Below, in pieces: positions 13,756 to 46,194 of a stretch of DNA of 64,000 nucleotides. The position numbers and the translations under genes are program-made. Location: the NCBI GenBank assembly GCA_032718475.1, contig JAUCBJ010003676.1, positions 62,001 to 126,000 of the forward strand. The letters run 5' to 3'. Under the pieces are notes generated by a model. It ran no database searches, had not been told where the DNA came from, and was given only the letters and a program-made list of their open reading frames with translations. The DNA comes from Nemertoderma westbladi. Lineage: Eukaryota > Animalia > Xenacoelomorpha. Positions within the stretch are counted from its first letter, which is position 1; the number at the start of each line of letters is the position of its first letter.

Positions 13756-14489
13756 ATGTGGGACCTTTGTTGGCCGCCACATAGACCTACTGTATTTTAG
13801 TTATTGGTATTTGTATTACTGTACGTGCATTTGTAATCCTCTTCACTGTAGATAGAGACAGCGGTGGAATTCCATTGTCTTTATACGTGAACATGGAGGG
13901 TAGTACCCTTATGTATCACATAGGAGCGGGATTGTGTGTACAGTAGGAATGGAATTCCACTTGGAACCCACAAGTGAGACAATTTTCAAAAATTATTAGA
14001 CAAATCCATTTATTTGGATTTAAATTTAAGAAAAACGATTCTCCAGTGAAAGCAAATTCTAGAATACAGCTAGATAAAAATTAAAATTGGGGAGGACAAG
14101 AGCGGATGGAAGGCTTGCGAGCCTACCGATAAATTTTTTTTGGAAAAAGAAAATCGGCCTTGTTCTACGTAGTCGTGTCTACTATTATTTAGACCAATTA
14201 ATTCTCGACTGCATTATTTTCTTTGGGAAGTAGCATGGGAAATTAAAAGGTGAGTATTTTAGACTCGCGGCTAGTTTACCCAGAATTCGTTTTTTATCGG
14301 CACATTTTTTGGATTAGGAGCCAGTGCGAAATCACGCGAACCCGAAATCATTAGGCAAAATGGGTTGGGGTTTAGAGCAGAGTTGAGCCAAAAGCCGACA
14401 AATTCTAAGTCACCTCACATCTAACCTCTATTTTGTGCTTCATCTAGTAGAAACGTAACGATATGTAACCACATATATATTCGTATACG

Positions 14490-17400: not shown

Positions 17401-17831
17401 GATTTTGGGCCTTAAACTCTCTCATAATGTCAAAGGAAGGATATGTATCGGCTATGCCTCAGTACGATGAATTGTTGGAGGTATTGGATATATTGCCGTT
17501 GGACAGTGGATTCAAAGTTGTGCGGGACTATTTCTTACAAGTGCACCCCGACAACAAGAATACTTGGAACTTTCAAACTGTGGTGAACAAGATTACAGCC
17601 GGAGAATTCGATAAACTGCGAGTTGAACAGCGGAATCGAGGAGCCTGGCATTCGATAGCTTGGGCATACCGGAGCGCATTTTATCACAAACGCGTAACCT
17701 CGTGCATTCCGGACGAGACCGACGTTTTGCGTGAGACTGGCTTCAAGGCCACGCCGTTAGCAGAGAAGACGCGTCACCCACAGGATGATCAGCAATTTCG
17801 TATACTCAAAGCCCAGAAGGCCGGACAATAG
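14490..17831 (+). CDS. BEL-1 accessory ORF: unknown N-terminal domain + DEDD 3'-5' exonuclease (WRN/RNase D-like) + three zinc knuckles; same frame resumes past one TAG to 18245
   Basis: ExoI-like FYDNEG (~15894), TIQIRAPDGVLHVF, ExoII-like LPKAVRDVVLDKSIVKIGSGVRDD, YVDT, ExoIII-like YYLAIE; knuckles CGRCGATGHHAKKC, CNWCGDQRSHTFYTC, CTYCNIKGHRASEC. Confidence 0.8.
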   Translation: MAEKMYKELRQGFTQEQEHQAPFNLYGAKNFSVFGVESMARSTAKLAKSKADPNVTRQRLDAYNKRTEELRAEYNALYPYDALCDASDICEDPDTEIRRLYHTLQYLTVNEPLPAARDEFEGMHLYRRARGADPETKDAFSIYKLFYKCGACMREQDNAIPMRLNSENPEPILARCSHHQSLRYQEGGYPLTNPYHSFKMSGPNAGEIVIYEPKLVEPDVYSMVVDESNKSTQEKREALSLYRAYKAYEKGEIEEFGGRLASLPFYWISHDQTEPKEMTPELFDSITFAQRLSQRLQIPHVEMTREPQPHSTGAIVPVARPTSFPISIPTRKETTYEIPIVEHPEIISNLDFLPSVTFGDVLESAELRKVIVQKIVRNVPPHITDFKEVDRAGTDIAPCILRGYLTKTIRLWIGVGTFETDTDIATNWTGKPISFDDEKSIGRIWNPTDDLLDDWDVTSRSLKENGYMFYDNEGGSHQQSLTSKTIQIRAPDGVLHVFSRQRSDRKMPMPEGTTQRHAMIKRIVKSMDLACSIEARMLPKAVRDVVLDKSIVKIGSGVRDDLISDFAGMPTEEDRLPTPYVDTRPLLLWAIEQGYFREYNTLKTGTGYISYLMFSWDYKESKRNKYTDVYGEGDTPGVNEFESQLKWRGCVYWAITSPPRIILQYYLAIESSVNVCFIADVVSRTLKRHPLCLGEGHTFYDGGRTHTDVFRRFLQPFYNTDAHCEVFTRAGLSVFRDVYLTHAGSLVDRPSMLTLVPYDGERHAEFERPEGSWKAREPTAHHDDVDPTELALIDEPLRQLIEIEENLPRKTRTEIRELEKSDAMVCVQPTETNIPTDPDDENYHVDGSARPIGDLIYERVWYPANTICGRCGATGHHAKKCGAKHISLPDLVCNWCGDQRSHTFYTCWRFVAQCTYCNIKGHRASECQLRDVPFEHMSVKIVRQLFDHWEDLADEHVSTQRRRFPMRAHLGFWALNSLIMSKEGYVSAMPQYDELLEVLDILPLDSGFKVVRDYFLQVHPDNKNTWNFQTVVNKITAGEFDKLRVEQRNRGAWHSIAWAYRSAFYHKRVTSCIPDETDVLRETGFKATPLAEKTRHPQDDQQFRILKAQKAGQ

Positions 17832-18898
17832 ATTAAGAAGATAGCTAATGTCGCCGAGAGGACGACATCGAAGTCGCAAATCTGGATGACTCGGGGCACG
17901 GTTTCCCTTGCTAGAGAACCACGCGGAGGGACAGGATACGCTTTGACTGAACCCATTAGGATTCAAACGACGTCAGAGAGCGAGGTGTCAACGGACGGAA
18001 CGGTCCTACCCTTTCGACTTCCTCCTAGCGTTGTAGAGACTCGATCCGATGTTAAGCCGACAGTTGGAATCGGACGAGGATTTAGAGGATTGAGCGCACG
18101 ACGGATGTGCGAAACTCCCGTCGTCCCCTTTCCTAGTGTTTTGGAACCACCGACGACTCGACGCCGAAGTCCGAGCCCAGTTCGACCTCGACCACCCCCC
18201 AATCGCACTAGAGGACGTGGACGAGCCCGCTCAGCGAAGGAATAGGAAGCGAGTGGAAGGAAGGCTTGCGAGCCTACCGATTTGGATATTTCATTTGGAT
18301 ATTATATTTGGATATTTATTTGGATACTTATATTTGGATATTATATTTGGATATTTATATTGGACATTATATTTGAATGTTGGGTTTGGAGGAGCGAGAT
18401 ATGGAAAGGAAGGCTTGCGAGTCTACCGTTAGCAATTAATGCTCAGGAGAAGATATCCAGACCAGCAGGACGAACTTTTAAGATCGTCATGAGGACATTA
18501 TTTGGAAGTTATTAGCGCATTGTGTTTATATTATATTTGAACTGATTTAATTTGGTGAAGGTTTATTATGTATATTTACAATATATAAAGATTTATCGAA
18601 AAGGTTACAATTATTTGTTCGATTTGTTTTGATTTATTTGTTCTGATTTGTTTAATTTGCTTACCTTGATAACCGAAAGCCTTTTTTTTTGTATTTTAGG
18701 CACTAAAGTTAATTAGTAAATTTGTATTTGTATGTACGATCGATTGTATTTACGCCGTATCTGCAATATTAAGTATGCAATAATTAGATAGTGATTATAT
18801 TTATATTTTAGGCCCTACCAGTAGATTTAGAAGTAGTTTGTAAATATTTTATATTTCGATTGGTGAAAACAGTCTTACTTACTGTTTTCATGGAGCGG

Positions 18899-19310: not shown

Positions 19311-21537
19311 TGTTAAACAACCGCGACACCTATACTAACAGCAGAACTGTTGAACAGACAAATACCCGTATACCTCTCTGCCAACCTAATGAGCTCTCGC
19401 CTAACCAATAAGACACAAAGACTGCTCTACTGTTAAGTAAAGGGGATCAGGAGTGTGCTATTACTAAATTGTAAGGGTTGCTAAATACAAAACCGCTACT
19501 TACCGTTGGATGGCGCTAATCTGCCGTCCGCTAATATATTTTACTAAATTTACACAACTCCTGCAAAATCGCTTGTTCCTTTCTCTACCGATCGCTCGAT
19601 AGAGAGCTAACTGTTCGAATCTATGAGCCACGCGGGAATAACCAAAACAATAAACCCGAGTCGGCTCCCTAAGCTTACTTAAGACGAGTGCGAGGGGCTT
19701 TGCACTCAGAGTATATTCTTACGCCTAATTTTACCACTGAAATACGCTAATGCCTACGTCTTTTCTAATCGCGAATACTGGGGGTTCCCTAACGGAATGT
19801 GTGAATGCGAGAATATTTAAAATAATCAAAATGGTACAGTACAATGTCTTTCGTAGGTGATACCGCTCTGGGTCTAAACTTGCCTGCAGCTGGCTTTAGG
19901 CCAGCAACTCACTAGTGTCTTGCGTACTGACTATTGCGATCTAGTTTATTACCCGCTAATGCAAATAACCGCTTAGCGTGAATAGTTTACAGTACTCTAA
20001 TTATTACCTTAGCTACTCTCCGCTATGCTGCGTACTAATTCTTAATTTTTACTAATCAATTACAGTCACAAATATGTAACAGCGTACTAATTACTAAGAG
20101 TTCCAGAATGCGTAATTCTAATTTATTACGCAACAGGTTTCGCTAGTAATAGCCTAAATTGCCGTATTACTTTGACCTAAGCAGTAGTTAATTGTTGTAA
20201 CTAAGAAATAGAAATCAATCAAAAGGGAATGGGGTGCCTACCTAAGCATTCGTAATCATAGGCACACTTCAGTAACACACCAATCAGCATCAGCAATCAC
20301 AGATCACAATAGTACAACTTGCAATTATACAATCTGCAATTATATAATTCGCAACATAATAATTCGCAATTGACTAATTCGCAATCTACTTACTCGCAAC
20401 TTACTTACTGTAAGGTATGCAGGCCCCTCCCGGGTACATCTAGGCTTCCTAACTAACCCAATTCCTGCCCCCTAATACTAAATAGAGACAAAACCTGGAT
20501 CATCAGCCCCCTAATTACTGTACCAGCGAGCGGTCTCCAACCTACAGTCCAAATCGCCCGACCGCAACGTTGACCCCCGCCAGCGTTGCCCGCTTTTGAA
20601 TCCTCCGCTCTCCCTAGTCGCTCAACCCCCCGATGTGCCCACCGCCCACTGGCACCTTAGCCCTTCATTATGCTAATAGCTACCGTAGCGGCGCATGCAA
20701 ATCACAAAGTCTGACAGTCTCAGAAATCCCTTAGGATTATTGCGCAGAAAGGAATCACATAGAACCATTAATCAAAAGTAGAAATCATAGTTCAGTTGTA
20801 ATTAGCAGTAATCGAAGGAATTAATTGAGAAACACAATCGAGAGTAATCGCACTAGCAAATCATTCCAAGAAATTAATCAAAATTAGCAAATTGCAGAAA
20901 ATACGCTAAAATATCCGTCAAAAATTGAATAGGGACAGCTCAGCAAGTACAAAGATGATAGCAGATCATGTGAGGTGTCATGGGGCAGATTGGTAAGGCT
21001 CTACCGGCACACCGCCAATTTATAGGTGATCCGGGTGGGTGATGCAATAGGGTGACTCAATCGCTCTCCTATTGGCTCTCCAGTCCGTGCTAGCATTAGA
21101 CCAACCTGGAAGCAGTTAGTCCAATAAGGAGGCCGGATTGTAGCCCTATTGCTCCCCAACCTCAAATTATTACCATATATGGTAATGGTTCACGTCCCTG
21201 GCTGCTGAATGGCCAGGACAGCGTCCCTATATGCTAGCCCTATCGATGCTAATATCAGCAAGCACAAAATCCAGGGTCCGAATAAACTTGCTACCCTGGA
21301 ACTATCTACATATATCCTAATACAAAATTACGTAGGTAGGGCTACATACTATACAAAATGGATGGATTCAAAATATATGGGCGTTTCGATTTCCCTATCT
21401 AAATATCATTGCGTTATTATGCCTTATCTAAAATATTATGCTGCACAACGGACTAATATTACATACAGTATAACGGACTAATATTGTGTACAGTATAACG
21501 ACTAATATATGTGGATACAGCGCCATATACCGTAACA
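19311..21537 (-). repeat. BEL-2 3' LTR (2227 bp)
   Basis: Near-identical to 33619-35846 (about ten differences by eye). Confidence 0.95.
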
Positions 21538-22411
21538 CCGCTCCAAGGGAAATCATACAATGTTTCCCTCCAATTGTAGAAGAGTATAAGGTGATGTATA
21601 CAAACAAAATAAATTTCTTCCAAATAATCTAGAAAACACAATAATTCTACTATTTACAAATATTGCCATAGATATTGCATAATGAATTTACATACAAATT
21701 AAAATTACAAAATATTATCTCTCTCAATGTTAACGATTATTACATACAAATTAAATTTACAAAAATACTGTTTCTCATTCGTTCTACATAATGATTACTA
21801 CATACAAAATTAAATTACAAAAATATTACTTCCTTTATTTATTTACAAATTGACTGTCTACCTATTGAAATGGAACATGGCTAGGACAATGTCCCCCATT
21901 TCCCATCTCAAATTAACGATCAACATTAACAAGATAAACTAAATATAAACGTATTTGAGGCTAAATTTTTAACTAAATTGCATTAAAGGCCGATAATCAA
22001 ATTAAATATAAAATACGTAATAATTTCTTTCATTTTCGGACTTTACTTAATTTCTTATAAAAAACGCAAATCATCTTGGTTTGATGATTGCTCAGGTAAG
22101 TGAAAGGAGTAAGCCAAACCCGCGGGTTTGTCTCCCCAATCACTTCCTTTGCCTCTTTCAATAAACTTTAGAGCAAATAAAGTCATATACACAAAATCAA
22201 ATATAATATAGGCTCAAAATCATATTTCCAACGGACTATAAAATAAAATTATTTCCTTTCAATATTTTTCGGCCTTCGAAAATAAAACTCTAAAATATGG
22301 ATACGACTAGTGTATATGAGTCCAGTCGAATGATTGATCAAAACCTACGATATGCATCAGAGCGACGATGATGTATATGTCTAGAGTTTGACGCTCCGTG
22401 ATATTATAGTC

Positions 22412-23512
22412 TCATCGGCTAGCTCCTGGGTCTCTCGGGCTCGCTCCCTTCTCCAGATACACCAGTCTACCCCCTGTAGACTCTGTTGACGGCGTCCTTG
22501 AGGCGTCACTTCCCGGAACCGGCGACGACGTTCCCTGGGCACTGACTATCTCCCGACTGGTGCTCCTCCCTCGGCCTCGTCCCATTTGCCGTGTCCCTGT
22601 GGGCGCCTCCGCCAACTCCTCTTTCTTCAACTTTATAGAATGGAACTGCTCGTCCTTGGCTTGACGCTTGCCAAGGACTCCTCCTTCTGGTACTTGCCGC
22701 GAGCTGTGAGGTCCGGCTGTTGTCTCTGTGGGCGCGGCGGTCCTGATCCTCCACTCGTTCAGAGGTCAATGACCCCAAACGAGTCTCCTTAGGCCGCCAA
22801 TTGTGCGCTGGGTAATAAATCTAGACGTATATATCAGAGCGACGATGATATATAAAGGATTGGACATATTCGGGCTTAATAATGCGTTCGTCGAAACTTC
22901 CCGAAATAATTTGGAGTAAATATCGTATAAATCGCGGATCGTGGGTATGGTTAGTAGACGGATGGACTGCGCGAATCTCGTCTGGATACTCAGGCGTGAC
23001 CTTCCTTTCCTGGTGAAGCGAAGTGAACGTGGTCCAGGAACTCGAGTCCCGTGCCGCTTCGCGCCGCGCCTCTAGGTCTTTATAGGCTCGGTATAGCGAA
23101 ATGGCCGCCACCGTGTCTATCAAAGCGGGTGTCGAACAGGTTTAATCTCCGTATACGGATCTAATGTCGTAACGGTCGGCGTAATGGGTCTCGGAGTTCG
23201 CTTTCCGCTGAAGTCGATACTGATCATCGGGTTGCTCATCGGGTAACCTCCCTCGTTATATCTAAGGAACTGGTGAGCTTGACATCGCGTTAATATCGGT
23301 TCTGGATGTTGCTCGTCTAGTCGGTCGGGAATCGTGGGTTTGTATTTCCCATTTAGCTCCATCACCAACCGCCCATGGTAGTAAACGTTCGAATCTTTAC
23401 ATCCCGGTCGCGCGAATGGTAACTCCGCCTCCTCTCTGGCAGTAAATCCTCTGCGCGGTTGCGCTCTAATATCCTTCTCCATTATGCCCGCGTATATACA
23501 TATATATCCCAA
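22412..23512 (-). pseudogene. BEL-2 accessory ORF remnant (internally deleted, frameshifted homolog of the BEL-1 accessory ORF)
   Basis: IPDRLDEQHPEPILTRCQAHQFLRYNEGGYPMSNP matches BEL-1 IPMRLNSENPEPILARCSHHQSLRYQEGGYPLTNP; ISLYRAYK vs LSLYRAYK; RRGFT vs RQGFT; RG-rich tail. Confidence 0.85.
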
Positions 23513-24240
23513 TAAGTGTTCCGTTACGCAAACCAGTTACACCGTGGGTAATCAGTTAGATGTCGCAGAAGGACAGACCTCCCGAACCCCCCCCCCCGCC
23601 TTCCAGCAGTTCAGGTTCGACTCTCTAGATCCCGTCTCTTCCTAACTAACTATCCTCTAACCTATTCCCATGCATAGCGCAAAACTTTGGAGATAAACTG
23701 GCCGTGACCAACTTACTTTTTGATGCCCAAACTACTCCCATTACTCGTACTAAACTACAGTAGTTAGAAAGGACTATAGCCACAATACTCGACTATACCA
23801 AACCCACAGGTTTGATAATCGAACATCACACATCCTGCAAACTACTGAGTGGGGTCCATGTACGCCTCTGGTGCTACTAACCTTTAGCACCTTAGTTGCA
23901 CTGTTGGCACCAATCTGTGGAAGTTGCTAAACTCAATTTACACTCCTATGTAATATAGCCGTCACCATGGTTTCTAAATGCTATTTTCCAGGCTTCACGA
24001 CTTTTCAAATTACTGTTTATCTATAGACGAATTCTAAAACGCGTCTATACACAGCGTCTGGAATTGTCTTGGGTTCACTTTTCTAATTTTAAAATTTTAA
24101 TTTTTCCAAAAATTTTGAAAATAAAATTTTGTTTTGATACCCACCAGACAAAACTCAACGCAAATCACCACAACCCCGCTCCTATGCATTTCCTTGTATT
24201 TGCATACGAGGAATGCATACGAAGTGAGTTGCGTCCAACA

Positions 24241-27200
24241 CTAACTCTGTTTTGAGGCAGGAGACAAATTATAATCTCCCGTCTCGATACGTGTCTCCTC
24301 TAATAACACGATATCTTGGACCGGTCGGTCCAAGGTGTGTAAACCATTAGTTTTACACTTTTTTGGGTGCGGACACTTGCACCTAATTTTCACAGTGACT
24401 GTGCGCACTATGTTTTGCACGTCTGGGTGTGTGTGCAAGATCACTCCCGTCTCCCAATACTTTCTCTTGACAATAGGTTCGGTTATCAGTACGTAATCTC
24501 CCCTTTGGAGGCCCCGAACCGTTTTGTACCACTTTGTTCTGGTGGATATGGTGGGAAGATAGTATTCCCGCCAATATTCCCAGAATGTGTACGCTACTAA
24601 TTGAGTCACTTTCCAGCTCTTACGACTATATAGGTCGGCACTAATGGGTTCTGATGCCGGCACAAGAAATGCTGGACTCTGCATTAGCAAATGATTCAGC
24701 GTTAATGCAACACCGTCTGGCAACATAGCTATCGGCCTCGAGTTTAGGGTATGCTCGATTTCAATGAAAGCTGTAACCAGTTCGTCGTCGGTAAGTTGTT
24801 TGTTTACAGGCAACGTCTTAGCAATGGCCTGCTTCACAGAGCGAACTAAACGCTCCCAACTTCCTCCTCTCCAAGGACTTTCTGGAGTATTGAATCTCCA
24901 TTCTACTCTTTGCGGCAAAAGTGCTGCAGAAATTTCCTTATTCTGTGCCGCTTTATGAGCCGCGTTCAACTCGCTATTCCCTCCGACAAAGTTTGTACCC
25001 TTATCGGAGTAGAACGCCTTTACTAGTCCTCTCCTGGCCATAAATCTCTTTAAGGCCAGGAGCAGAGATTTGGTCGACATGTCTGCCACACGCTCAATGT
25101 GTATGGCTCTACTAGCCATACATGTCAGTAGCAGACCCCATCGCTTGTGGGTCAGCCGTCCACTCTTTGCTTCAATCGGACCAAAACAGTCCACCCCTGT
25201 GTTCGTAAAGGGTGGGTCATATGCCTGCACTCTCGCTTCCAGGAGTTCAGCCATCTCCTGTTCCAATACTCTGGCGTTCACCCTCTTGCAAACCAGACAG
25301 GCGTCATACATAGTGCCGACTGCCCTGCTTGGCTGCAATAAAATGAATCGCTGTCTCGCTGCCGACAGACAGTGTAACTTTCCCGCGTGATGCAACCGCT
25401 TGTGTATATCCCATAGAATCGCTCTTTGCAATTCTATTGGGTGACTAGGGATTATCACTGGGAACCGAAACTGTGAGTTTATGTCGACAGTCTGGATTCT
25501 CGATCTATGACAAATTAAACCCTTATGGATTAATGGGCTCCATTTTCTAAGGGGTTTATAGAGAACTGGTCGTTGAGCCGATAATAGATGGAATTCTTTT
25601 GGGAAGGCACACATTTGATAATGCTTCAAATGCTTTAATTCCGCTTGATCAATCTCATCCTCTGTCAGAGGTTGTTTCAATTTCCGAATTCGCTCACTAT
25701 TGGTGCTCAATGGTTCTCTCAAATGTTTCGAATGTTTTAAACAAAGGTACGAAATGTATCGGCTTAACCACGCAGTTCTTTTACAAATTGTCAGCCAAGA
25801 GGCAGACGAATTTAGTAATTTGTCATAAATACTGCATGACTCTAATGCCAGCGACGGTTGTCCGCTAACTAATGGAAGTTTCGAATCCAAACCCGCAGGT
25901 TTGGAAACCAAAGGCTCCATTTTGTCAGTCATTTTCTGTCCGTCACTTATCAACTGTGACTGTCGTCTAGTCTGTAAGGGTGGTTTTACGTCATAACTTA
26001 CCCTTCCGGACCTAGTAGTCACGTAAGTCTGTTGGTCTGACAGGTCTCCGGGCCGCTCCAATGACTCTTCAGGCCGCTCCAATGACTCTTCAGGCCGCTC
26101 CAATGACTTAAGTTTGGCTTTAGACTTTGACTTAGAGACTTTCTCCACCTTGACTTCTGCATCTTCAGGCATCGGATTGGTCACTATCTTTAGTCGCTCT
26201 GGCCAATGTTCCTGTGTCCTCGTTAGAAAATCAGGTCCATGCAACCAAAACTCCTGAGACTCTTCCTGACAGAATTCCACCGGCATTGCACCTCTCGAAG
26301 TTATGTCGGCCGGGTTCAACACTCCCGGACAATGTCTCCATTGTTCCTTCGTCGAAAAGTCAACGATCTGAGCGCGTCTGTTGGCCATAAATGTCTTTAG
26401 TGCAATATTGTCGGCCGCAATGTATACTAACACCAAGGATGCGTCCGTCCAATAGAATAAGGTCAATGTCGTGTCTAACTCCTCTGTTATCTGCTTACTT
26501 ACCTCGACTGAAACTACAGCCGCCTGTAACTCTGCACGAGGGACAGTCATGTATTTGACCGGCATTGTCTTTGATCTAGAAGTCACAAAGGCCGTCTCAA
26601 ACTTGTCCTGACTTACCTCTCGGCGAAGGTAGGCTACCATACCAAAGCCGGTGTCACTTGCGTCACTGAACAGATGCAGTTCGAGATCAGCTGGAAATAC
26701 CAGCTGATTCGGAAAGTAGGAACGGGGTACGTCTATGTTTTTCAATAGATGTAACTCGGCTTCCCACTCCCTCCACTGCTTTGCATGTATAGGAGATATT
26801 GGTTCGTCCCACTCTAAGTCGGACAACCAAATTTTCCTCATGCACGCTCGTGCCTGTAATATAACCGGACTGATAAAATTCATCGGGTCAAATAGTCTAC
26901 TTAATGTCGATAAGCAAATCCTCTTTGTCAAAACTTTGTCTGGGCTACTGGGCTCAAATCTAACTCTTACCTGGAACTTATCTGAGTTCGGGTTCCAAGC
27001 GAGTCCCAGTACTCGCGCCATGGGGATTGGTTCTACCCCCAATTCTATGTCTCCGCTCCCGCGATCTTTTACCGGGAACGATTCTAATAGGGCCTCCGAA
27101 TTTGTAGTGAACTTGGTTAGAGGAAATCCCCCTGTAGCCAAGCACTCTTGCAGGCCGTGAGCCACTTCTATGGCTTGTTCCGCTGTGTCCTTGGACACCA

Positions 27201-30200
27201 ATCCGTCGTCCATGTAGAAGTTTCTCAAGATGGACTCGATTACTTCTACTGGATACTTACCAATCTGGGCTGTTGCCGTTTTCTTTAGAACAAACAGCGT
27301 GCCGTTCGGACTATCGCGGGCGCCAAATATCCTAACGTACATTTGGTATGTAACCACTGGGCCGGATAAGTCTTCATTCTCGTACCAGAGAAAGCGAAGG
27401 CTATCCTGGTCTGCCTTACAGGCTCTTACCTGGTGGAACATCGCCTCGATGTCACAAGTAAATGCGAATCGCCGCTGTCTAAAACGTAACAGTATTCCAA
27501 TCAAATAGTTGTTCAGGTTGGGTCCATCCATCAACTCTGAATTCAGGGACATACCTCTATAGACTGCTGCGCAGTCGTTGACTACTCGGACTTTGTCTGG
27601 TTTGTCAGGGTGAGTCACATAGTGGTGTGGAAGGTAATAAGTCTGGTCTGTCACTAAGTCAGGGTCCTCTACCTTCCCAGCAAATCCCTTGGCGAAATAG
27701 TTGTTGATCTGGGCGCAATACTTCTCCCTAATGTCTGGATTCTTCAACAACCGAGCCCTTACTCCGTTTAATCTTTTCAAGGCTAAGTTATAGTTGTTCT
27801 CCAACTTAGGTGGTTGTCGACGCCACAACATTCCAACTTCAAAATGTCCAGTCGGTAGTAGACGTATGGTATCTTCCATCATCTCCAGCGACCGTTTCTC
27901 ATCAGTAGACATGGCTAGGTCATATCCACCGGGTTCCATTGCGTCCCTATCCAGCCATTCGACGGTTCTGGCTCCTGTCTCGAGGTCCTGGCGTATCAAT
28001 TCCTTCTGTAATTCCTCCTCACTGTATTGGAAAATGTCTAGGTCTCGATATTTAGCCACTTGACCCTCCACTATGTCTGTATAAGTCAAAACGTTAGTCA
28101 AATAGGTAGCGTGGGCCGCTGAACCAGACCCACGGGTCTGATAACAGTAGTCCTCGGGTTCACTATCTGTCCGGTCGTTGTGAAGTGGTTCCGACAACCT
28201 AACATTATCGGGAATCAACTCCTCGTCCGACTCGCTAAAGTCGCTATAGTGGTCAATACAGGTTCTCCTAAACTCGTCTATGTCTGGTGGTTCTACTAAC
28301 GGTGGTTGAGTTATAGGCTGTAATTCGTCGTATCTGTCCATTGGCTTGTCACCACCTGTAAACTCATAAGACATGGGTACTCGTGTATACCAACCTAATA
28401 TAGTCCTATGGGCATGTGGTCCATTGACATGCGGCTCAGCTGGTCTCGTTTCCCATATTTGGTGTGCGATCAGCTGTTCTGCACCAATTAACATAGAAAC
28501 ATTCCTATAACCTACCTGGTGTCTGGGTATCCTGAGCTTGTCAAAATACTCCTGTGCTATGGGACTCATCGGCGGCACCTTACCTAACTGCCTGCCGAAT
28601 CCCTTCATAGCTAGACACTTAAATCCGTCCAATGGCAAAGCTTTCCGTTCTTGTCGAGTATGTTGGTCTCTCGGAAGTAGGGAATCTAGTTCTACCGAAA
28701 TTCTGTGTCCCTTGAGGTCTCCTACTCCATGCATAGACTTCAACTCTATTTGGATCTCCTCGGCGTCCTGGAAGCTAGAAACAGCTCTCGCCACTTCCTC
28801 GTCGATATAAGATAATGTGGACGCAGTGTCCAACATCACATATATCCGCTTTGATCCCTTATCGCCGGTAAGTTTCACCGGAATCACTCTAAATATTTCC
28901 GACGTTGCCGATGATAAATACGTCCGCGCGCTGGTCGATGAACTATCCGCGGTGAAACCTTGGCAGGTCACCTCTCTCGCGCTCGACTCGCCATCCTCGT
29001 CCGACGAACCTGGTTGATAACCATCGTCCTGGATGCCGGTGTACGTATTCCTCCTTATCGATACGGGTTCTTTGCTCCCCTTCCTTTGAGGATTTCGCTG
29101 TAAGTAACGGTCCGTTGGGGTGTGGAAATCCGCATGTAGCAACTTGTGATGTAGTCTGCCGCATTCCATGCATCCGTCCTTGCTGTTCGGGCACTGCCGC
29201 CGTACATGACCTGGCGCAAGACATGCCCAACAGGTGTCCAACGTCCGCACTTGAACTCTTCTCTGTTCCGAATTTAATTCTTTGAACCGTCTGCAACTAT
29301 CTAACTTATGATCGTCAGATCTTACCTCCTTTAGTAAACAGTATTGGCAACCTACAAATCCATCCGGCAACTCCTGTTGCTTTAACCTAGGTCTATCTAA
29401 CCGCTCACCTGACCATACTCGCGAGTCTGATCTAAAGGCTGGGGTACTCGAATTATATCTGTCTACTGAGTTATAAGTCACAGTGGTCCTGTTATCGTCA
29501 AAACTTACCATAGACTTACCGGTAACAGGCTTAGACTCTCTCATATTCTCTTCTGAGAAGTTTGATTTCATCTCTGCTACTGCTTCTGTGGCTATCATGT
29601 CATGAATATGCTGAAGTGTCAACACCTTACCTTGGCCCTCCAACTTATTCTCTAATTTGCGCCATTTCTGTCGATAACGCATGTTTAAACGTCTAATTAC
29701 GCTTTTCAAAACTTCGGCGTGATCACCATGATGAGGTAGATTCACCGTCCTCAAGATGTCCAATGCGTTCGAAATAGCGTTCGCTAAGTTCAACAGCTCT
29801 AACGGAGTTGTAATCCTTCCGCCCTTACCCAAGTCTTCTACTATCGACTGCGCCATCTTTGTTTTATTCCCGTAGATGTCGCTAAGCGTCTTCATCGCTA
29901 ACTCGAATGCCCTTTCATTGCCGACGAAGTTATCAGCAATGGCTCTAGGTTCTCGATGGAGCATCTGAAGCAAATAGTTGAACTTCTCGTTGGGAGTAAA
30001 GGTGCTGTTGGTTAGCTGCTCGTCGACATAGGTTTTAAAGGTCCTCCAATGCTTATGGTTGCCCATAAACTTCTGGGGTTGTTGCGTCGGCAGTCCTTGC
30101 CTAGCAGCAAACTTACCTATGTCCCTAAGGGTTGCGTCGTTCCGGGTTAACAAATGGTTTAGTTCCGCAGGGTTGTTAAGTCTGGTCCTTTCCCGGTGGT

Positions 30201-32538
30201 TCCAACTTACCTGCTCCGCGTCGGTCCTTCTTTCCTTATAGTTTCGGGACTTCTGACGTCTCATTTCTTCCTCTTCATCGCTTGACTCTGTGTCAGTCCT
30301 TAGCGCTCGCGATGGTTTGCGCGCCGAGGCCCTGATCCAAGCCTCCTCAATAAATTTCTCGGCCGAATTATCGAAGTTGGGATTATGAATATTCGGGACA
30401 GGCGTCCTTACCTGAGGTCTATGTGGTATAGTCTCCTCCGATATGCGTACTCGTTGACTAGGCTGGACTTTATCTAACTCAGGCCTGCTAGGATTAGAAT
30501 TACTTCTTACCTGGGCTGCTTCCTTTAACCGTAGGTTGCTAAGCATGTCCGTTATAGGTTGGATGTGCGGCGATATAGCTTGCGCTAAACTAGCACTTAA
30601 CTCATCCCTCGTAATAAATTCCTGGCTAGGGTTCTGTTGTATAGTCGGCTCTATCTGAGTAATCCGCTGTCTCTCATATGATCCCTCTTCCGGTTTAACC
30701 CGGAAGTTCTCCGTCGAACTGGGTCGGCGCTCCGTCCCCGTATTCCAAACCCGCGGGTTCGGTTCGCCCAATACTCGGCCCGTCGGAGTTTCTTCTCTAA
30801 ATTCTTCGTTGTCGCGTTCGGTGTATAGTGGTGCGGTGTTCTGATGCCGTGGATTCTGCGCGATAGGTGAAGCACTAATACCAACTGGCGTGCGATATGT
30901 AGAGAATGGTTTAGCGATCCGTGTACTCGTAATAGCTGGACCGGGTATAGGAATTCTGGTCGTCGTCGACTCGCGTATGGTCGGAGTTCTCGCTTCCTGT
31001 TCGGCCTTCTGCAGTGCGAACAGTTCTCGCAACTCGGTCCCTACACTCGCCCCACATTCTTCGATCATTCGCATCCCCTTCTCGGCGATTTCATTCGCCT
31101 TCCTAGTCCGTTCTTCGCTCTCTAAACTTAATCTCGCACTTTCCAACTGCGCCAGTTTACGTTCTTCTTCTTCCCTCGCTCGTCTCGCTGCGCTCTCTTC
31201 TTCCACCAGCGCCTTCTCTTCATACAACGCCCGTCGCTCCTTCTCGATCTCGAGTTCGCGTTCTTTGCGCTCGTGTTCGAGTTGAAGTTCGTATTCCTTT
31301 TGTTCGCGTTCGAGCTGGAGTTCGCGTTCCTTGCGTTCGCGTTCGAGCTTGAGTTCGCGTTCCTTGCATTCGCGTTCCGCTTGCTCGCGCTTACCTTTCT
31401 CTTCCAACTCTCGCAACTTTGCGTCTAACTTACGTGTGCGCTCCCGTTCCCGCTCGGCTTCCTTCCGTGCTTCCGATGCACGCAAAACTTCCGCCTGTTG
31501 TTCGTCCAGTTGGCGTCTTCTCTCCTCCGCCGAGTTGTGAGAAACAAGGGATCTAGCACATATAACCTTCCCTCGCGCGTGACTAACCTGGGAATCGCCA
31601 CTGTCTCTGCATGCGTCGTCGGGTGGAGTCAACGTCCTCTGTTGAATGTTCTCCGTCGTCGGTAGCACCTGACCTGGTACCACCACTCCATTCTGCATCA
31701 GCCAGCTAGTAACTTCCCTTTGATACCTGCGCTCTTCTTTATCTTGGATCTCTTCTCGCTCCACTAAGTCTCTCAACTCTGCGTCACTCACCTGAGTCGC
31801 CTGCGTTTGTGATGCCCATAGCAGCCAGTTCTCCGTCCTAACTCGTCGGAATCGCTCCGATAACTCGCGATGCTCCAACAGGGCTGCCAAAACCCTATCA
31901 TAAATCCTCGTCGCCACGTCGCTCGACTGAGACTCTACTGCCTTCTTCGCTAGGACTGCAAGCTCCTCCGTCTGCTTGAATAACGCTGAATTATATCCTC
32001 TTCTAATCTCTACTAACTCTACCCTCCCGATGTTCGCTGAGTCGGCTAACATTTTCCTTACCTTGTCCGCCGTCCGAGTTATATGTCCGGCGTGCGCGCG
32101 AAGTTTCTTCTTTATCGCAATGTCGAACTCTCTATCACTTACCTGACTTACACTCGGTGGACTTGAAGGGTTATTTCGGGAACTACGGGTACTCCTTACA
32201 GCCGTTGGGACCACGGCACTTACCATACCCACAGGTCTGGAAACCGGGCTCCGGGCTCTCGCTTCTGCTACACTACCCTCCCTATCACTCACCTCTGTCC
32301 GGGCTTCCGTACAGTCCTTCCTATCAGTAGCGGTAGGGGATCCTAATACTATTACCTGAGGTAGTTCTTCTTCCTCACTAGTCACTGTCTCGTCCTCCTG
32401 TTCACTTACGTCAGCGTCGCTCGCTGCGTCGTCATAGTCGGCATTGTCGTCAACAGTAATATTTACGCTATCGTCAGTCGGCGGTCCGGCCGCCGTCTCA
32501 TAGCTGTCCTCTACTGCCTCCTTGTCTGAGACACTCAT
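24241..32538 (-). CDS. BEL-2 intact gag-pol polyprotein (2765 aa)
   Basis: Coiled-coil Gag, knuckles (CWACLAPGHVRRQC), protease MLDTAST, RT FYMDD, RNase H FSDAS, integrase GVDCFGP/SDKGTNF/WERL; no stops. Confidence 0.96.
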   Translation of the reverse strand: MSVSDKEAVEDSYETAAGPPTDDSVNITVDDNADYDDAASDADVSEQEDETVTSEEEELPQVIVLGSPTATDRKDCTEARTEVSDREGSVAEARARSPVSRPVGMVSAVVPTAVRSTRSSRNNPSSPPSVSQVSDREFDIAIKKKLRAHAGHITRTADKVRKMLADSANIGRVELVEIRRGYNSALFKQTEELAVLAKKAVESQSSDVATRIYDRVLAALLEHRELSERFRRVRTENWLLWASQTQATQVSDAELRDLVEREEIQDKEERRYQREVTSWLMQNGVVVPGQVLPTTENIQQRTLTPPDDACRDSGDSQVSHARGKVICARSLVSHNSAEERRRQLDEQQAEVLRASEARKEAERERERTRKLDAKLRELEEKGKREQAERECKERELKLERERKERELQLEREQKEYELQLEHERKERELEIEKERRALYEEKALVEEESAARRAREEEERKLAQLESARLSLESEERTRKANEIAEKGMRMIEECGASVGTELRELFALQKAEQEARTPTIRESTTTRIPIPGPAITSTRIAKPFSTYRTPVGISASPIAQNPRHQNTAPLYTERDNEEFREETPTGRVLGEPNPRVWNTGTERRPSSTENFRVKPEEGSYERQRITQIEPTIQQNPSQEFITRDELSASLAQAISPHIQPITDMLSNLRLKEAAQVRSNSNPSRPELDKVQPSQRVRISEETIPHRPQVRTPVPNIHNPNFDNSAEKFIEEAWIRASARKPSRALRTDTESSDEEEEMRRQKSRNYKERRTDAEQVSWNHRERTRLNNPAELNHLLTRNDATLRDIGKFAARQGLPTQQPQKFMGNHKHWRTFKTYVDEQLTNSTFTPNEKFNYLLQMLHREPRAIADNFVGNERAFELAMKTLSDIYGNKTKMAQSIVEDLGKGGRITTPLELLNLANAISNALDILRTVNLPHHGDHAEVLKSVIRRLNMRYRQKWRKLENKLEGQGKVLTLQHIHDMIATEAVAEMKSNFSEENMRESKPVTGKSMVSFDDNRTTVTYNSVDRYNSSTPAFRSDSRVWSGERLDRPRLKQQELPDGFVGCQYCLLKEVRSDDHKLDSCRRFKELNSEQRRVQVRTLDTCWACLAPGHVRRQCPNSKDGCMECGRLHHKLLHADFHTPTDRYLQRNPQRKGSKEPVSIRRNTYTGIQDDGYQPGSSDEDGESSAREVTCQGFTADSSSTSARTYLSSATSEIFRVIPVKLTGDKGSKRIYVMLDTASTLSYIDEEVARAVSSFQDAEEIQIELKSMHGVGDLKGHRISVELDSLLPRDQHTRQERKALPLDGFKCLAMKGFGRQLGKVPPMSPIAQEYFDKLRIPRHQVGYRNVSMLIGAEQLIAHQIWETRPAEPHVNGPHAHRTILGWYTRVPMSYEFTGGDKPMDRYDELQPITQPPLVEPPDIDEFRRTCIDHYSDFSESDEELIPDNVRLSEPLHNDRTDSEPEDYCYQTRGSGSAAHATYLTNVLTYTDIVEGQVAKYRDLDIFQYSEEELQKELIRQDLETGARTVEWLDRDAMEPGGYDLAMSTDEKRSLEMMEDTIRLLPTGHFEVGMLWRRQPPKLENNYNLALKRLNGVRARLLKNPDIREKYCAQINNYFAKGFAGKVEDPDLVTDQTYYLPHHYVTHPDKPDKVRVVNDCAAVYRGMSLNSELMDGPNLNNYLIGILLRFRQRRFAFTCDIEAMFHQVRACKADQDSLRFLWYENEDLSGPVVTYQMYVRIFGARDSPNGTLFVLKKTATAQIGKYPVEVIESILRNFYMDDGLVSKDTAEQAIEVAHGLQECLATGGFPLTKFTTNSEALLESFPVKDRGSGDIELGVEPIPMARVLGLAWNPNSDKFQVRVRFEPSSPDKVLTKRICLSTLSRLFDPMNFISPVILQARACMRKIWLSDLEWDEPISPIHAKQWREWEAELHLLKNIDVPRSYFPNQLVFPADLELHLFSDASDTGFGMVAYLRREVSQDKFETAFVTSRSKTMPVKYMTVPRAELQAAVVSVEVSKQITEELDTTLTLFYWTDASLVLVYIAADNIALKTFMANRRAQIVDFSTKEQWRHCPGVLNPADITSRGAMPVEFCQEESQEFWLHGPDFLTRTQEHWPERLKIVTNPMPEDAEVKVEKVSKSKSKAKLKSLERPEESLERPEESLERPGDLSDQQTYVTTRSGRVSYDVKPPLQTRRQSQLISDGQKMTDKMEPLVSKPAGLDSKLPLVSGQPSLALESCSIYDKLLNSSASWLTICKRTAWLSRYISYLCLKHSKHLREPLSTNSERIRKLKQPLTEDEIDQAELKHLKHYQMCAFPKEFHLLSAQRPVLYKPLRKWSPLIHKGLICHRSRIQTVDINSQFRFPVIIPSHPIELQRAILWDIHKRLHHAGKLHCLSAARQRFILLQPSRAVGTMYDACLVCKRVNARVLEQEMAELLEARVQAYDPPFTNTGVDCFGPIEAKSGRLTHKRWGLLLTCMASRAIHIERVADMSTKSLLLALKRFMARRGLVKAFYSDKGTNFVGGNSELNAAHKAAQNKEISAALLPQRVEWRFNTPESPWRGGSWERLVRSVKQAIAKTLPVNKQLTDDELVTAFIEIEHTLNSRPIAMLPDGVALTLNHLLMQSPAFLVPASEPISADLYSRKSWKVTQLVAYTFWEYWREYYLPTISTRTKWYKTVRGLQRGDYVLITEPIVKRKYWETGVILHTHPDVQNIVRTVTVKIRCKCPHPKKCKTNGLHTLDRPVQDIVLLEETRIETGDYNLSPASKQS

Positions 32539-33618
32539 AGTCTAATAATGTTTGCCTTCCGGCAAAATATCTCGCAAAGTTCGAGATATAATTATAATTT
32601 AACCGAAAATACGGTCAAATTATTTGTCAAATAATCAGTTGGTCCAAAATGTCAAAATAAATTCGCAATGCAATATTGCGAATTTAATGGGGTATATAGT
32701 TATAGCAAATACTAGCACAATATTTAAACAAAATATTATTATATAGCTACTATAGCAATTAAATACCGGTATGACACAAAATAGCTTTGAATCTAATACA
32801 AAATATTCAAAATAAACTTGCCACCCGATTATTTCTAATTTTACATATATAGCTCTAATCAACGTAATTTTAATTTCAAATATTATATGTATCCACTAGC
32901 GCGTGGCTACATCTTCGGGTTGCGACTCTCTCTAACTCTCTCTCTAACTTGAGCGATTCAAAACCATGGCCGGCTAAACCTAAATATCCTAACTAATAAA
33001 TTGAGTTCAGCTTCGCAGTTAAACAACCGATAATTTTTTACTGCTTCCACAAACACAATGGTGCCAACAGAACAACTAACCTTGTTTGCTGTGAGATTCC
33101 ACGTCCGCGTCCAAAGATTCAGGCTTTTCGCTGATTGCAAACCGAACCCGCAGACCCACACGAACCCCAAACTCAGAAGTTCTGTCTTGCCATGTATCTC
33201 CAGATGGTATAAAATAACTAAGCGGTTACCTAACATACCGGTACAAAACTCTAGAATTTTACAAAATAATTTTGACCGAAACTGAATTCTCGCAAACCTA
33301 GCTAATAATTTTCAAAAAACTTACTAATTACAATTTGCCCTAAGGCCTAAGCAACTGTATTCGCAATTAGTAAAAACGCACTACCGTACATCCACTGTAT
33401 GCAGTACAGTAAGTAAAACAGTACACCAACCTAACAGCCTAATGCTACTGTGTGTGTGGTACGGCAAACAAATGTCCTTCTACCGTACGCAGTAACAGCA
33501 ATCAGCCTAATGTACTACTGTACTATCGTACGCAACCAGTGAATACAGTAATCTAAACTAGCAGCCTAAGAATACTCTATTGACCGCTGCAAGCAACAGC
33601 CAATAAAACATACCTTAC

Positions 33619-35846
33619 TGTTAAACAACCGCGACACCTATACTAACAGCAGAACTGTTGAACAGACAAATACCCGTATACCTCTCTGCCAACCTAATGA
33701 GCTCTCGCCTAACCAATAAGACACAAAGACTGCTCTACTGTTAAGTAAAGGGGATCAGGAGTGTGCTATTACTAAATTGTAAGGGTTGCTAAATACAAAA
33801 CCGCTACTTACCGTTGGATGGCGCTAATCTGCCGTCCGCTAATATATTTTACTAAATTTACACAACTCCTGCAAAATCGCTTGTTCCTTTCTCTACCGAT
33901 CGCTCGATAGAGAGCTAACTGTTCGAATCTATGAGCCACACGGGAATAACCAAAACAATAAACCCGAGTCGGCTCCCTAAGCTTACTTAAGACGAGTGCG
34001 AGGGGCTTTGCACTCAGAGTATATTCTTACGCCTAATTTTACCACTGAAATACGCTAATGCCTACGTCTTTTCTAATCGCGAATACTGGGGGTTCCCTAA
34101 CGGAATGTGTGAATGCGAGAATATTTAAAATAATCAAAATGGTACAGTACAATGTCTTTCGTAGGTGATACCGCTCTGGGTCTAAACTTGCCTGCAGCTG
34201 GCTTTAGGCCAGCAACTCACTAGTGTCTTGCGTACTGACTATTGCGATCTAGTTTATTACCCGCTAATGCAAATAACCGCTTAGCGTGAATAGTTTACAG
34301 TACTCTAATTATTACCTTAGCTACTCTCCGCTATGCTGCGTACTAATTCTTAATTTTTACTAATCAATTACAGTCACAAATATGTAACAGCGTACTAATT
34401 ACTAAGAGTTCCAGAATGCGTAATTCTAATTTATTACGCAACAGGTTTCGCTAGTAATAGCCTAAATTGCCGTATTACTTTGACCTAAGCAGTAGTTAAT
34501 TGTTGTAACTAAGAAATAGAAATCAATCAAAAGGGAATGGGGCGCCTACCTAAGCATTCGTAATCATAGGCACACTTCAGTAACACACCAATCAGCGTCA
34601 GCAATCACAGATCACAATAGTACAACTTGCAATTATACAATCTGCAATTATATAATTCGCAACATAATAATTCGCAATTGACTAATTCGCAATCTACTTA
34701 CTCGCAACTTACTTACTGTAAGGTATGCAGGCCCCTCCCGGGTACATCTAGGCTTCCTAAGTAACCCAATTCCTGCCCCCTAATACTAAATAGAGACAAA
34801 ACCTGGATCATCAGCCCCCTAATTACTGTACCAGCGAGCGGTCTCCAACCTACAGTCCAAATCGCCCGACTGCAACGTTGACCCCCGCCAGCGTTGCCCG
34901 CTTTTGAATCCTCCGCTCTCCCTAGTCGCTCAACCCCCCGATGTGCCCACCGCCCACTGGCACCTTAGCCCTTCATTATGCTAATAGCTACCGTAGCGGC
35001 GCATGCAAATCACAAAGTCTGACAGTCTCAGAAATCCCTTAGGATTATTGCGCAGAAAGGAATCACATAGAACCATTAATCAAAAGTAGAAATCATAGTT
35101 CAGTTGTAATTAGCAGTAATCGAAGGAATTAATTGAGAAACACAATCGAGAGTAATCGCACTAGCAAATCATTCCAAGAAATTAATCAAAATTAGCAAAT
35201 TGCAGAAAATACGCCAAAATATCCGTCAAAAATTGAATAGGGACAGCTCAGCAAGTACAAAGATGATATCAGATCCTTGTGAGGTGTCATGGGGCAGATT
35301 GGTAAGGCTCTACCGGCACACCGCCAATTTATAGGTGATCCGGGTGGGTGATGCAATAGGGTGACTCAATCGCTCTCCTATTGGCTCTCCAGTCCGTGCT
35401 AGCATTAGACCAACCTGGAAGCAGTTAGTCCAATAAGGAGGCCGGATTGTAGCCCTATTGCTCCCCAACTTCAAATTATTACCATATATGGTAATGGTTC
35501 ACGTCCTTGGCTGCTGAATGGCCAGGACAGCGTCCCTATATGCTAGCCCTATCGATGCTAATATCAGCAAGCACAAAATCCAGGGTCCGAATAAACTTGC
35601 TACCCTGGAACTATCTACATATATCCTAATACAAAATTACGTAGGTAGGGCTACATACTATACAAAATGGATGGATTCAAAATATATGGGCGTTTCGATT
35701 TCCCTATCTAAATATCATTGCGTTATTATGCCTTATCTAAAATATTATGCTGCACAACGGACTAATATTACATACAGTATAACGGACTAATATTGTGTAC
35801 AGTATAACGACTAATATATGTGGATACAGCGCCATATACCGTAACA
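33619..35846 (-). repeat. BEL-2 5' LTR (2228 bp)
   Basis: Direct repeat of 19311-21537; minus-strand TATAAA near 35330 with upstream CCAAT. Confidence 0.95.
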
Positions 35847-44295: not shown

Positions 44296-45628
44296 TCGGA
44301 ATTCTTGATTGGGTGTCTTTATATCCCAGGGGTCTTTATATCCCAGGGGTCTTTATATCCCATCTTAAAAAAAGCCTTAAAAATGGGTCTTTATATCCCA
44401 AGGGTCTTTATATCCCAGGGGTCTTTATATCCCATTTCTACACTAAAAGCGAGTCTTTATATCCCAGGGGTCTTTATATCCCAAGGGGCTTTATATCCCA
44501 AGGGGCTTTATATCCCAGGGGGCGTTATATCCAGTAGGTCCTTTTTGTAATGGTCCCGCAACTTTTCAATAAATATACTTCTGAGGAAATATAACAATAA
44601 CTAGTATAATAATTAAGGATAAAAATTAATTATTAAAATATTTACAATTGAAGGTAAACCCTGTCACCAACACCTAATCCACCGCCTCTTCCATTATCAC
44701 CTAGACCACCGCCACCAACACCTAGTCCACCATCTCCTCCACCAACACCTAGTCCACCCACGCCGCCACCAACACCTAGTCCACCCTCTCCTCCACCAAC
44801 ACCTAGTCCACCCTCTCCTCCACCAACACCTAGTCCACCCACACCGCCACCAACACCTAGTCCACCCTCTCCTCCACCAACACCTAGTCCACCCACACCG
44901 CCACCAACACCTAGTCCACCCTCTCCTCCACCAACACCTAGTCAACCCACACCGCCACCAACACCTAGTCCACCCTCTCCTCCACCAACACCTAGTCCAC
45001 CCACACCGCCACCAACACCTAGTTCACCCACACCGCCACCAACACCTAGTCCACCCTCTCCTCCACCAACACCTAGTCCACCCACACCGCCACCAACACC
45101 TAGTCCACCCTCTCCTCCACCAACACCTAGTCCACCCACACCGCCACCAACACCTAGTCCACCCTCTCCTCCACCAACACCTAGTCCACCCACACCGCCA
45201 CCAACACCTAGTCCACCCTCTCCTCCACCAACACCTAGTCCACCCACACCGCCACCAACACCTAGTCCACCCTCTCCTCCACCAACACCTAGTCCACCCA
45301 CACCGCCACCAACACCTAGTCCACCCTCTCCTCCACCAACACCTAGTCCACCCACACCGCCACCAACACCTAGTTCCCACCAATTTCCACCTATTTCCCA
45401 CCAAAGAATTTATTCTCCCAGAATAACTGGTGGGATATAAAGCCCCCTGGGATATAAAGACCCTTGGGATATAAAGACCCCTGGGATATAAAGACCCGAT
45501 TTTAGTTTAGAAGTGGGATATAACGACCCCTGGGATATAAAGACCCATTTTTTTAGGGTGGGATATAAAGACCCTTGGGATATAAAGACCCCTGGGATAT
45601 AAAGACCTGAGACCGAATTCTTTACCCG
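44296..45628. mobile_element. Non-autonomous foldback-type element with inverted arrays of a 16-bp subterminal motif; termini approximate
   Basis: TCTTTATATCCCAGGG-type array at ~44315-44535, inverted GGGATATAAAGACCC array at ~45430-45606. Confidence 0.65.
44663..45378. repeat. 27-bp minisatellite with alternating variants (~26 units)
   Basis: CCACCAACACCTAGTCCACCC followed by ACACCG or TCTCCT. Confidence 0.9.
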
Positions 45629-46194
45629 TAGAAGTAGTCGATACACGTACCTTAAAAATGTTTTGTACAAATCTGAAAAACGTTGATCTACTACGTAAAG
45701 GTTTTGCACGTTTTATCGATTTGATAAATAATATATTATTACAGTACATTGATTTATTATATATTACATTAATATACTTTGGTGCTTTTTTTCGTTGTAA
45801 TTTTAAAAGTGTTGATTTACAATAATTACATGTGGCAACAGTTTCATTTATGGTAAATACTGTCATAATCTATGTAAAAAAAACACCGCGGCCTCCATAA
45901 GTGCTATGCCTGGGCGATCTTCTCACATGCATAGACTCAAACATTTGTTATTTGTTTAATAATTATAATAATAATAAACATAAAAGGAAAATATGTCGAC
46001 CCAGTACTGCAGTACTGTAAAGTACCAGTAATATGAATTGAAAAATTGAATTGAATTGAACAGAAAATGTGCTAATATATTGTACCGGTATGTATCTCAT
46101 TTATTGAAACCCATTTCTGCATTTAGTTCAGGCAACAATAAACAGTGGATATGTTAATCAACATTTTAAAATTATAGCTAAATAGGCTAAAAGC

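Follow-up and report, generated by a model that had tools for sequence, protein, structure and literature searches.

A window of 64,000 nt of Nemertoderma westbladi DNA (the whole stretch analysed, to which all positions refer) holds three BEL/Pao long terminal repeat (LTR) retrotransposons, BEL-1 on the plus strand, BEL-2 on the minus strand and BEL-3 on the plus strand. Short hairpins recur along the internal region of each of them, with 12 copies in BEL-1, six in BEL-2 and five in BEL-3. These hairpins are real and under selection, they probably act at the level of RNA, and they belong so far to this one lineage only. Stems that are uniform within a family and different between families, all in a single host, fit a family-specific recognition system, as far as sequence comparison can tell.

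The hairpins of BEL-2

The first-pass annotation of the window had placed four hairpins on the minus strand, which is the sense strand of BEL-2, at 30745-30762, 25886-25905, 23799-23814 and 22115-22130, and all four were recovered at exactly these positions. With two newly found copies, the set comprises the following (PR, protease; RT, reverse transcriptase; RH, ribonuclease H; IN, integrase; UTR, untranslated region):

32223-32240, minus strand: BEL-2 hairpin 1, N-terminal gag (N-gag); TGTG loop, one purine mismatch; the weakest copy, newly found
30745-30762, minus strand: BEL-2 hairpin 2, mid-gag; CGCG loop; includes a G-U pair possible on the sense strand only
28123-28142, minus strand: BEL-2 hairpin 3, PR-RT linker; CGTG loop, compensatory change from A-U to G-C; newly found
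25886-25905, minus strand: BEL-2 hairpin 4, RH-IN linker; TGCG loop; same frame and nearly the same aligned position as the BEL-1 copy at 12169
23796-23817, minus strand: BEL-2 hairpin 5, non-coding pol-accessory spacer; TGTG loop; no stem change among other genomic copies
22115-22130, minus strand: BEL-2 hairpin 6, 3' UTR; CGCG loop; tip of a longer predicted stem

Five of the six copies fold as drawn (z -2.3 to -4.2); the N-gag copy, with a z of 0.1, does no better than shuffles. Longer stems around the hairpin cores are significant in some copies only. A seventh candidate, at 33143-33158, was dropped with a predicted stem probability of 0.00 in context.

Similar counts in shuffled sequences would, by the first-pass annotation, have spoken against the motif, and shuffled sequences did not give them. 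The sense strand of BEL-2 has six YGYG loops (Y, pyrimidine) with a stem of at least 6 bp, a count that includes the dropped candidate at 33143-33158 and omits the mismatched copy, whereas 200 dinucleotide shuffles have 0.41 on average and never more than 3; the antisense strand has one. When no motif was preset, the largest family of look-alike tetraloop hairpins had five members in BEL-2 and 12 in BEL-1, again well above the shuffles, in which it never exceeded two (60 shuffles each).

As a separate observation on the 3' UTR, several deletion joints in other genomic copies end near its hairpin and keep it (skips 21815-22088, 21861-22100, 22160-22306 and 22131-23043); one among the joints listed, 22063-22814, deletes it.

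Related hairpin sets in BEL-1 and BEL-3

5630-18427, plus strand: BEL-1 hairpin set, 12 copies, each 20 nt long; first positions 5630 (CAAA loop), 6673, 6766, 9300, 9378, 9456, 12169, 14108, 15261, 16807, 18259 and 18408
52792-62182, plus strand: BEL-3 hairpin set, five copies, each having a bulged A and a loop of GAAA or GCAA; first positions 52792, 53006, 55217, 59102 and 62166

The BEL-1 hairpin contains an A-A mismatch, and its stem is identical in 10 of the 12 copies, the variants being one compensatory closing pair and one G-U pair. As had been proposed, BEL-1 has copies in the same four regions as those first noted in BEL-2; beyond these regions, its copies lie in N-gag, the PR-RT linker and the accessory open reading frame (ORF). 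The loop is YGYG in 11 of the 12 and CAAA in the remaining one. The earlier claim of a common YGYG loop therefore holds for BEL-1 and BEL-2 (17 of 18 copies) and fails for BEL-3. Since BEL-3 has GAAA or GCAA loops and one BEL-1 copy (5630) has CAAA, it is the repeated hairpins that are a trait of the lineage, and the YGYG loop is not.

The locations of the BEL-3 hairpins include mid-gag, the RH-IN linker and the region after pol, and their flanks are partly conserved. The copy at 62166 caps a stem-loop, predicted to be long and very stable, within the accessory ORF (62139-62208, plus strand, z -6.8). Local tandem copies are seen in BEL-1 and BEL-3, and the hairpins have spread in part by local tandem duplication, with spacings of 78 and 93 nt.

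The 18 copies of BEL-1 and BEL-2 align without gaps over an inner stem of five pairs, two of which are common to both families and three of which differ by double transitions, and intermediate forms of the stem are present in both. On this alignment, the two stems are one homologous hairpin that has been altered by compensatory transitions and is uniform within each family. The first-pass annotation had given each family a different stem; the uniformity within families and the difference between them stand, and the separateness gives way to a single homologous stem with three compensatory transitions. Among 11 distinct BEL-1 and BEL-2 rows, five of eight pairs show changes in both partners. 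The covariation score is 0.609 (0.289 in shuffles; 0 of 500 reach it), a value owed mostly to the two groups of relatives in the alignment. In BEL-2 by itself, covariation fails to exceed the shuffles (64/500), and no double change was found in the BEL-3 hairpins.

Positions and spacing

The coding copies of BEL-2 lie at residues 103, 596, 1470 and 2215, and those of BEL-1 map to residues ~300, 611-630, 1443-1475 and 2219. The positions had been called equivalent, which is accurate by region. Only the RH-IN copy lies within four residues and in frame, so that the RH-IN copies of BEL-1 and BEL-2 may be orthologous; the N-gag copies do not correspond, and the remaining copies are common by region only. 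All coding copies fall in poorly conserved stretches and are spread across three reading frames. Because three frames are used, and copies also occur in non-coding sequence, a peptide motif was rejected as the explanation. The RH-IN linker measures 412 amino acids (aa) in BEL-1, 246 aa in BEL-2 and 162 aa in BEL-3, compared with 114-185 aa (median 143) in 71 homologues.

The copies are more evenly spaced than random placement would give, both for the six BEL-2 sites (p ~0.004) and for eight BEL-1 clusters (p ~0.004), with the caveat that placement is constrained by where the linkers lie. None of the LTR stretches tested contains a copy.

An RNA signal

To judge from loop and stem variants, the hairpin signal most likely acts as RNA. 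On the sense strand, each of the 13 YGYG loops that are asymmetric has the order pyrimidine-G-pyrimidine-G, and if these are counted as nine independent clusters, chance would produce such polarity about once in 500. Within the loop C and U interchange and the guanines at positions 2 and 4 are kept, the CAAA copy being the exception. Neutral decay of CpG was rejected as a source of the YGYG pattern since it would yield G-to-A changes as often as C-to-T. Single changes in the inner stem result in G-U pairs on the sense strand in three copies (18408, 30745 and 55217); for BEL-2 hairpin 2, at 30745, predicted folding reaches -9.9 kcal/mol on the sense strand versus -5.6 on the antisense strand. 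Two copies contain purine mismatches. The BEL-3 hairpin family was detected on the sense strand only (three versus one), and its combination of a GNRA loop and a bulge is sensible as RNA and not as a DNA palindrome. Loop polarity and the sense-only G-U variants thus bear out the earlier assignment of the signal to the sense strand.

The YNMG tetraloop is defined as a loop Y-N-M-G (M being A or C) closed by a C-G pair. The hairpins do not fall into this class: U occupies loop position 3 in three of the six BEL-2 copies, and the closing pair is U-A in 11 of the 12 BEL-1 copies. A search of positions 4000-36500 with the Rfam covariance models gave one weak, unrelated match (E 0.21) and none on a hairpin.

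Conservation among genomic copies

BEL-2 is an abundant family, with 20,693 contigs aligned in run X1 and 8,932 in X3. The comparison of genomic copies covers one hairpin, hairpin 5 of the spacer. Over positions 23775-23858 the contigs vary at 22 of 84 positions and at none of the 16 stem positions, and the only change in the core is at the first loop pyrimidine. This single change is carried by one X5 contig that is ~81% identical (28 differences in ~149 bases). Stem conservation has a p of 0.004 if sites are independent, a value that overstates the case because the variable sites around the hairpin are clustered.

Distribution in other BEL elements

The best 80 of 509 metagenome matches and 23 matches from a genome collection were combined into a set of 103 distant BEL loci, which have 29-44% identity in their best segment and are partly redundant; 13 loci shorter than 4.5 kb were excluded from the hairpin count. 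A detector of hairpin families that recovers eight, five and three copies in BEL-1, BEL-2 and BEL-3, respectively, found a family of three in 0 of the 90 loci of at least 4.5 kb. The core common to BEL-1 and BEL-2 likewise has no occurrence in the 798,073 bases of these distant loci. A lack of such hairpins in related families would, by the first-pass annotation, count against its reading; 0 of 90 distant loci carry any, which makes the hairpins a feature of a single lineage, not of BEL/Pao elements at large. A structure-blind repeat scan of 85 loci of 5-15 kb was noisy, with families of four being common and families of at least five occurring in three loci, two of which have them clustered at both ends like LTR repeats; the third is locus L007.

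Searches of viral contigs with the alignments of RT and of the accessory protein, and with the BEL-1 motif, gave no match. In a literature search whose coverage mostly left out subscription journals, no LTR retrotransposon, BEL/Pao or other, was found to be described with dispersed hairpins specific to its family, and a search on RNA structure and packaging in Belpaoviridae returned only a Ty1 paper.

The elements and their proteins

19311-35846, minus strand: BEL-2, complete BEL/Pao LTR retrotransposon of 16.5 kb, with LTRs, TG...CA ends, target duplication and Pfam domains
33619-35846, minus strand: BEL-2 5' LTR; no hairpin motif
19311-21537, minus strand: BEL-2 3' LTR; no BEL-2 hairpin motif
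24241-32541, minus strand: BEL-2 intact gag-pol ORF, 2766 aa from stop to stop
29134-29349, minus strand: BEL-2 Gag nucleocapsid with three Cys/His knuckles, candidate reader of the hairpins
14490-17831, plus strand: BEL-1 accessory ORF, 1113 aa, with an N-terminal domain, a DEDD-type exonuclease-like domain and three CCHC knuckles
22400-23482, minus strand: BEL-2 accessory ORF remnant, broken, end approximate; N-terminal domain in common with that of BEL-1, no exonuclease or knuckles seen
61970-62798, plus strand: BEL-3 accessory ORF, broken and short; exonuclease-like part homologous to that of BEL-1

The LTRs of BEL-2 (2228 bp, 99.5% identity) have TG...CA ends and a 5-bp target duplication, and the host site appears to be the 3' LTR of BEL-1, as a nested insertion. 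The features of BEL/Pao are present, namely a single gag-pol with DUF1759, three Cys/His knuckles, Peptidase_A17, an integrase zinc-binding domain and DUF5641. In BEL-1, pol is broken and the 1113-aa accessory ORF is intact, and BEL-3 has decayed further; Gag zinc knuckles are present in all three elements. A FastTree phylogeny of 97 RT sequences places BEL-1, BEL-2 and BEL-3 in a clade of their own (support 0.995) alongside BEL/Pao relatives, with RT segment identities to BEL-2 of 60% for BEL-1 and 44% for BEL-3. Protein searches returned no close relative, the best full-length identities being ~42%.

The middle of the BEL-1 accessory protein is exonuclease-like, with an Atlas score of 0.91 to a WRN-like cluster in which PF01612 is found on 38% of members, and the first acidic motif of the DEDD-type domain is apparently intact in the sequence. 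A single homologue, P0170, with the same layout, was found among 1.84 billion representatives; a word search found none. A sequence search of the PDB gave no match for the exonuclease region and non-significant matches for the P0170 knuckles (best E 0.18), and a single-sequence fold of the BEL-1 protein was unusable (mean predicted local distance difference test score of 34). The 103 distant loci contain no homologue of the BEL-1 or BEL-3 accessory protein (best E 0.07), many of them stopping soon after pol.

Several further features of the elements were observed. The LTRs of BEL-2 are unusually long, and BEL-1 and BEL-2 have a common purine-tract end immediately before the 3' LTR. After its 5' LTR, BEL-2 is without a TGG-type primer site. 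The first 10 bases past this LTR (33609-33618, minus strand) are perfectly complementary to mid-LTR positions 34718-34727, and the pairing extends beyond one mismatch into the LTR end, adjoined by a splice-donor-like site. The complementarity suggests self-priming, which is a lead only, as most of 27 distant BEL loci with LTR pairs also lack TGG at this point. Loci L007, L017, L030, L054 and L075 have a TTCGA-containing or other non-TGG sequence directly after the 5' LTR, which we take to be a possible sign of priming by an internal tRNA fragment. Elsewhere in the window, 46023-48500 holds an array of ~53 copies of a 42-nt unit, with short inverted repeats on one side (44300-45600). The pol-accessory spacer of BEL-3 (60979-61400, plus strand) contains three dispersed copies of an 80-nt GC-rich unit, distinct from the GNRA hairpins, which are possibly a further RNA structure.

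Candidate readers of the hairpins

The explanation that we tentatively favour is that the hairpins are RNA tags bound at many sites by the zinc knuckles of the element's own Gag, for genome selection or assembly. Evenly spread along the internal region and presumably folded in vivo, the hairpins of each family would mark its own unusually long genomic RNA. The reader is likely to be encoded by the element, unless the copies read each other, because one reader supplied by the host would not force a separate, uniform stem upon each of the families. Among element-encoded proteins Gag is the leading candidate, since its knuckles make it the sole knuckle protein seen in all three elements and since the nucleocapsid (NC) of human immunodeficiency virus type 1 (HIV-1), which has two knuckles, binds a GGAG tetraloop at loop bases two and four, both of which are G (PMC7599994). 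The loop guanines at positions 2 and 4 would sit in the knuckle pockets of Gag, and binding at many sites would gather, compact and package the long genomic RNA. Such a tag would exclude the RNA of sister families, and the self/non-self discrimination suggested in the first pass is plausible as a hypothesis. A possible extension, put forward with reserve, is a family barcode in which a hairpin placed every 1-3 kb, in coding and non-coding sequence alike, changes in concert at all its copies and together with an element-encoded reader, or else pairs with itself, with sister families packaging, exporting or dimerising only their own genomes.

A number of points, besides the clustered variable sites around hairpin 5 and the limits of the covariation signal, weigh against recognition by Gag of a selected RNA structure. 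The extended stem predicted for the X5 contig keeps four changed pairs (one through a double change) and breaks four. The loops of BEL-3 (GAAA or GCAA, 5/5) and of BEL-1 5630 (CAAA) are without guanines at positions 2 and 4, and replacement of the HIV-1 GGAG loop had little effect on packaging (PMC7599994). Distant BEL elements have the same core Gag domain family, DUF1759, yet no hairpin family (0/90), and the co-occurrence of hairpins with the accessory gene speaks for a different reader. With copies in the accessory ORF and the 3' UTR, a subgenomic RNA would also carry some hairpins. Finally, all three elements come from one lineage in one host and so count as a single evolutionary origin.

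Among the alternatives, an RNA-RNA zipper is the likeliest, though still unlikely. The motifs would refold as extended duplexes between members of the same family, linking two genomes or compacting one, and discrimination would need no protein reader. With G-U wobble permitted, YGYG is precisely the loop centre that remains self-complementary, a property that would explain why C-to-U changes are tolerated and G-to-A changes are not. The predicted duplex is favoured over two hairpins in all 66 BEL-1 pairs (mean -13.7 kcal/mol) and all 15 BEL-2 pairs (-12.1), and in only 4 of 72 pairs between the two families (mean +4.4). There is also a precedent in the self-complementary PAL1 and PAL2 palindromes through which Ty1 RNA dimerises (PMC6844567), although these lie in the 5' UTR, and the BEL hairpins are many, dispersed and family-uniform, with dimerisation predicted only, for BEL-1 and BEL-2 and not for BEL-3. 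However, the energies follow from any palindrome and are no evidence of use, the BEL-3 hairpins (mean -1.0) and BEL-1 5630 cannot pair with themselves in this way, and a site that pairs with its own twin would not keep distant copies alike. The accessory protein, with its exonuclease-like domain and three CCHC knuckles, is an improbable reader, one that would coat genomic RNA for export or protection like Rev or CERV. A related accessory ORF is found in all three hairpin-bearing elements and in 0 of the 103 distant loci, and both the knuckles and the exonuclease fold are supported. CERV of Cer1 is an accessory protein of an LTR retrotransposon that is required for export of genomic RNA (PMC10309623), a role that is hypothetical here, and the rotifer LTR elements Juno and Vesta have an extra exonuclease gene (ORF3, DEDDy) after pol (PMC5408684). 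Unlike these, the present accessory gene sits in BEL/Pao elements and adds three CCHC knuckles; a term search of the available text of the two papers returned no repeated RNA hairpin element (PMC5408684, PMC10309623). Against this reader, no exonuclease or knuckles were seen in the BEL-2 copy and the BEL-3 copy ends before the knuckles, yet both elements retain hairpins; supply from fuller copies is possible, and none was seen. The co-occurrence, moreover, counts as one event in one lineage, and the sequence of many of the 103 loci stops shortly after pol.

Other explanations appear weaker. It is very improbable that the motifs serve as palindromic sites in DNA for an anti-silencing factor encoded by the element, in the way that VANC binds VANDAL motifs (PMC5735166). 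In its favour, the motifs are near-palindromic and family-specific, differ between relatives and have partly spread by local tandem duplication in elements with an accessory protein, all of which resembles VANC and VANDAL; the loop contains CpG, and the observed/expected ratio of CpG is 1.06-1.18 in the elements versus 0.54-0.69 in their flanks. VANC, however, acts on DNA transposons at the level of DNA, and the evidence here points to RNA structure on the sense strand: the loop polarity is strict despite the symmetric core arms of BEL-2, variants are of the G-U type, BEL-3 has its GNRA-plus-bulge form, and no copies occur in the LTRs, where the promoter lies. These are not the properties of a double-stranded DNA motif of the VANC type. 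Recognition of the loop by a host RNA-binding protein acting in transport, export or stability is equally hard to credit. BEL-1 and BEL-2 share the loop in one host and dispersed sites would suit a host adaptor, but such a protein would not account for a uniform stem that changes from family to family, the BEL-3 loop differs and there is no Rfam match. The idea that the hairpins arose neutrally, when slippage or template switching copied a small palindrome into linkers that tolerate it, draws on the local tandem copies in BEL-1 and BEL-3 and on linkers longer than those of homologues. It is scarcely tenable, being largely refuted already by cores that are intact amid unrelated flanks, compensatory changes, even spacing and retention in a divergent genomic copy.

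Relation to known systems and significance

Recognition by Gag at many sites, the reading favoured above, would place the BEL hairpins beside the dispersed packaging signals that are established in RNA viruses such as MS2, picornaviruses and hepatitis B virus (PMC6281560). Those signals are likewise many short stem-loops with a common motif, distributed along the genomic RNA including its coding sequence (PMC6281560). The differences are that the BEL hairpins lie in LTR retrotransposons, that their copies are far more uniform, that they differ between sister families, and that binding to Gag or capsid is here only proposed. A partial likeness to Psi and stem-loop 3 (SL3) of HIV-1 lies in the guanines at loop positions 2 and 4, present in 17 of 18 BEL-1 and BEL-2 copies and in 0 of 5 BEL-3 copies, and in CCHC knuckles encoded in cis. 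Whereas Psi is a single cluster in the 5' leader, the BEL elements have 5-12 copies through gag, pol, the spacer, the accessory ORF and the 3' UTR; no leader cluster was found in BEL-2, whose only leader candidate does not fold.

To our knowledge, little is understood of the way in which LTR retrotransposons pick out their own RNA, except in Ty1 and Ty3. The three families described here share one host and have homologous yet distinct, uniform hairpins, and so provide a natural set of matched and mismatched signals and readers that can be tested in vitro. If the pairs prove orthogonal, they would show that self-recognition codes can drift without loss of function, and would constitute small orthogonal RNA-protein or RNA-RNA modules. 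Should the family barcode hold true, it would parallel the VANC/VANDAL arms race at the level of RNA and give LTR retrotransposons their first example of a packaging code read at many sites.

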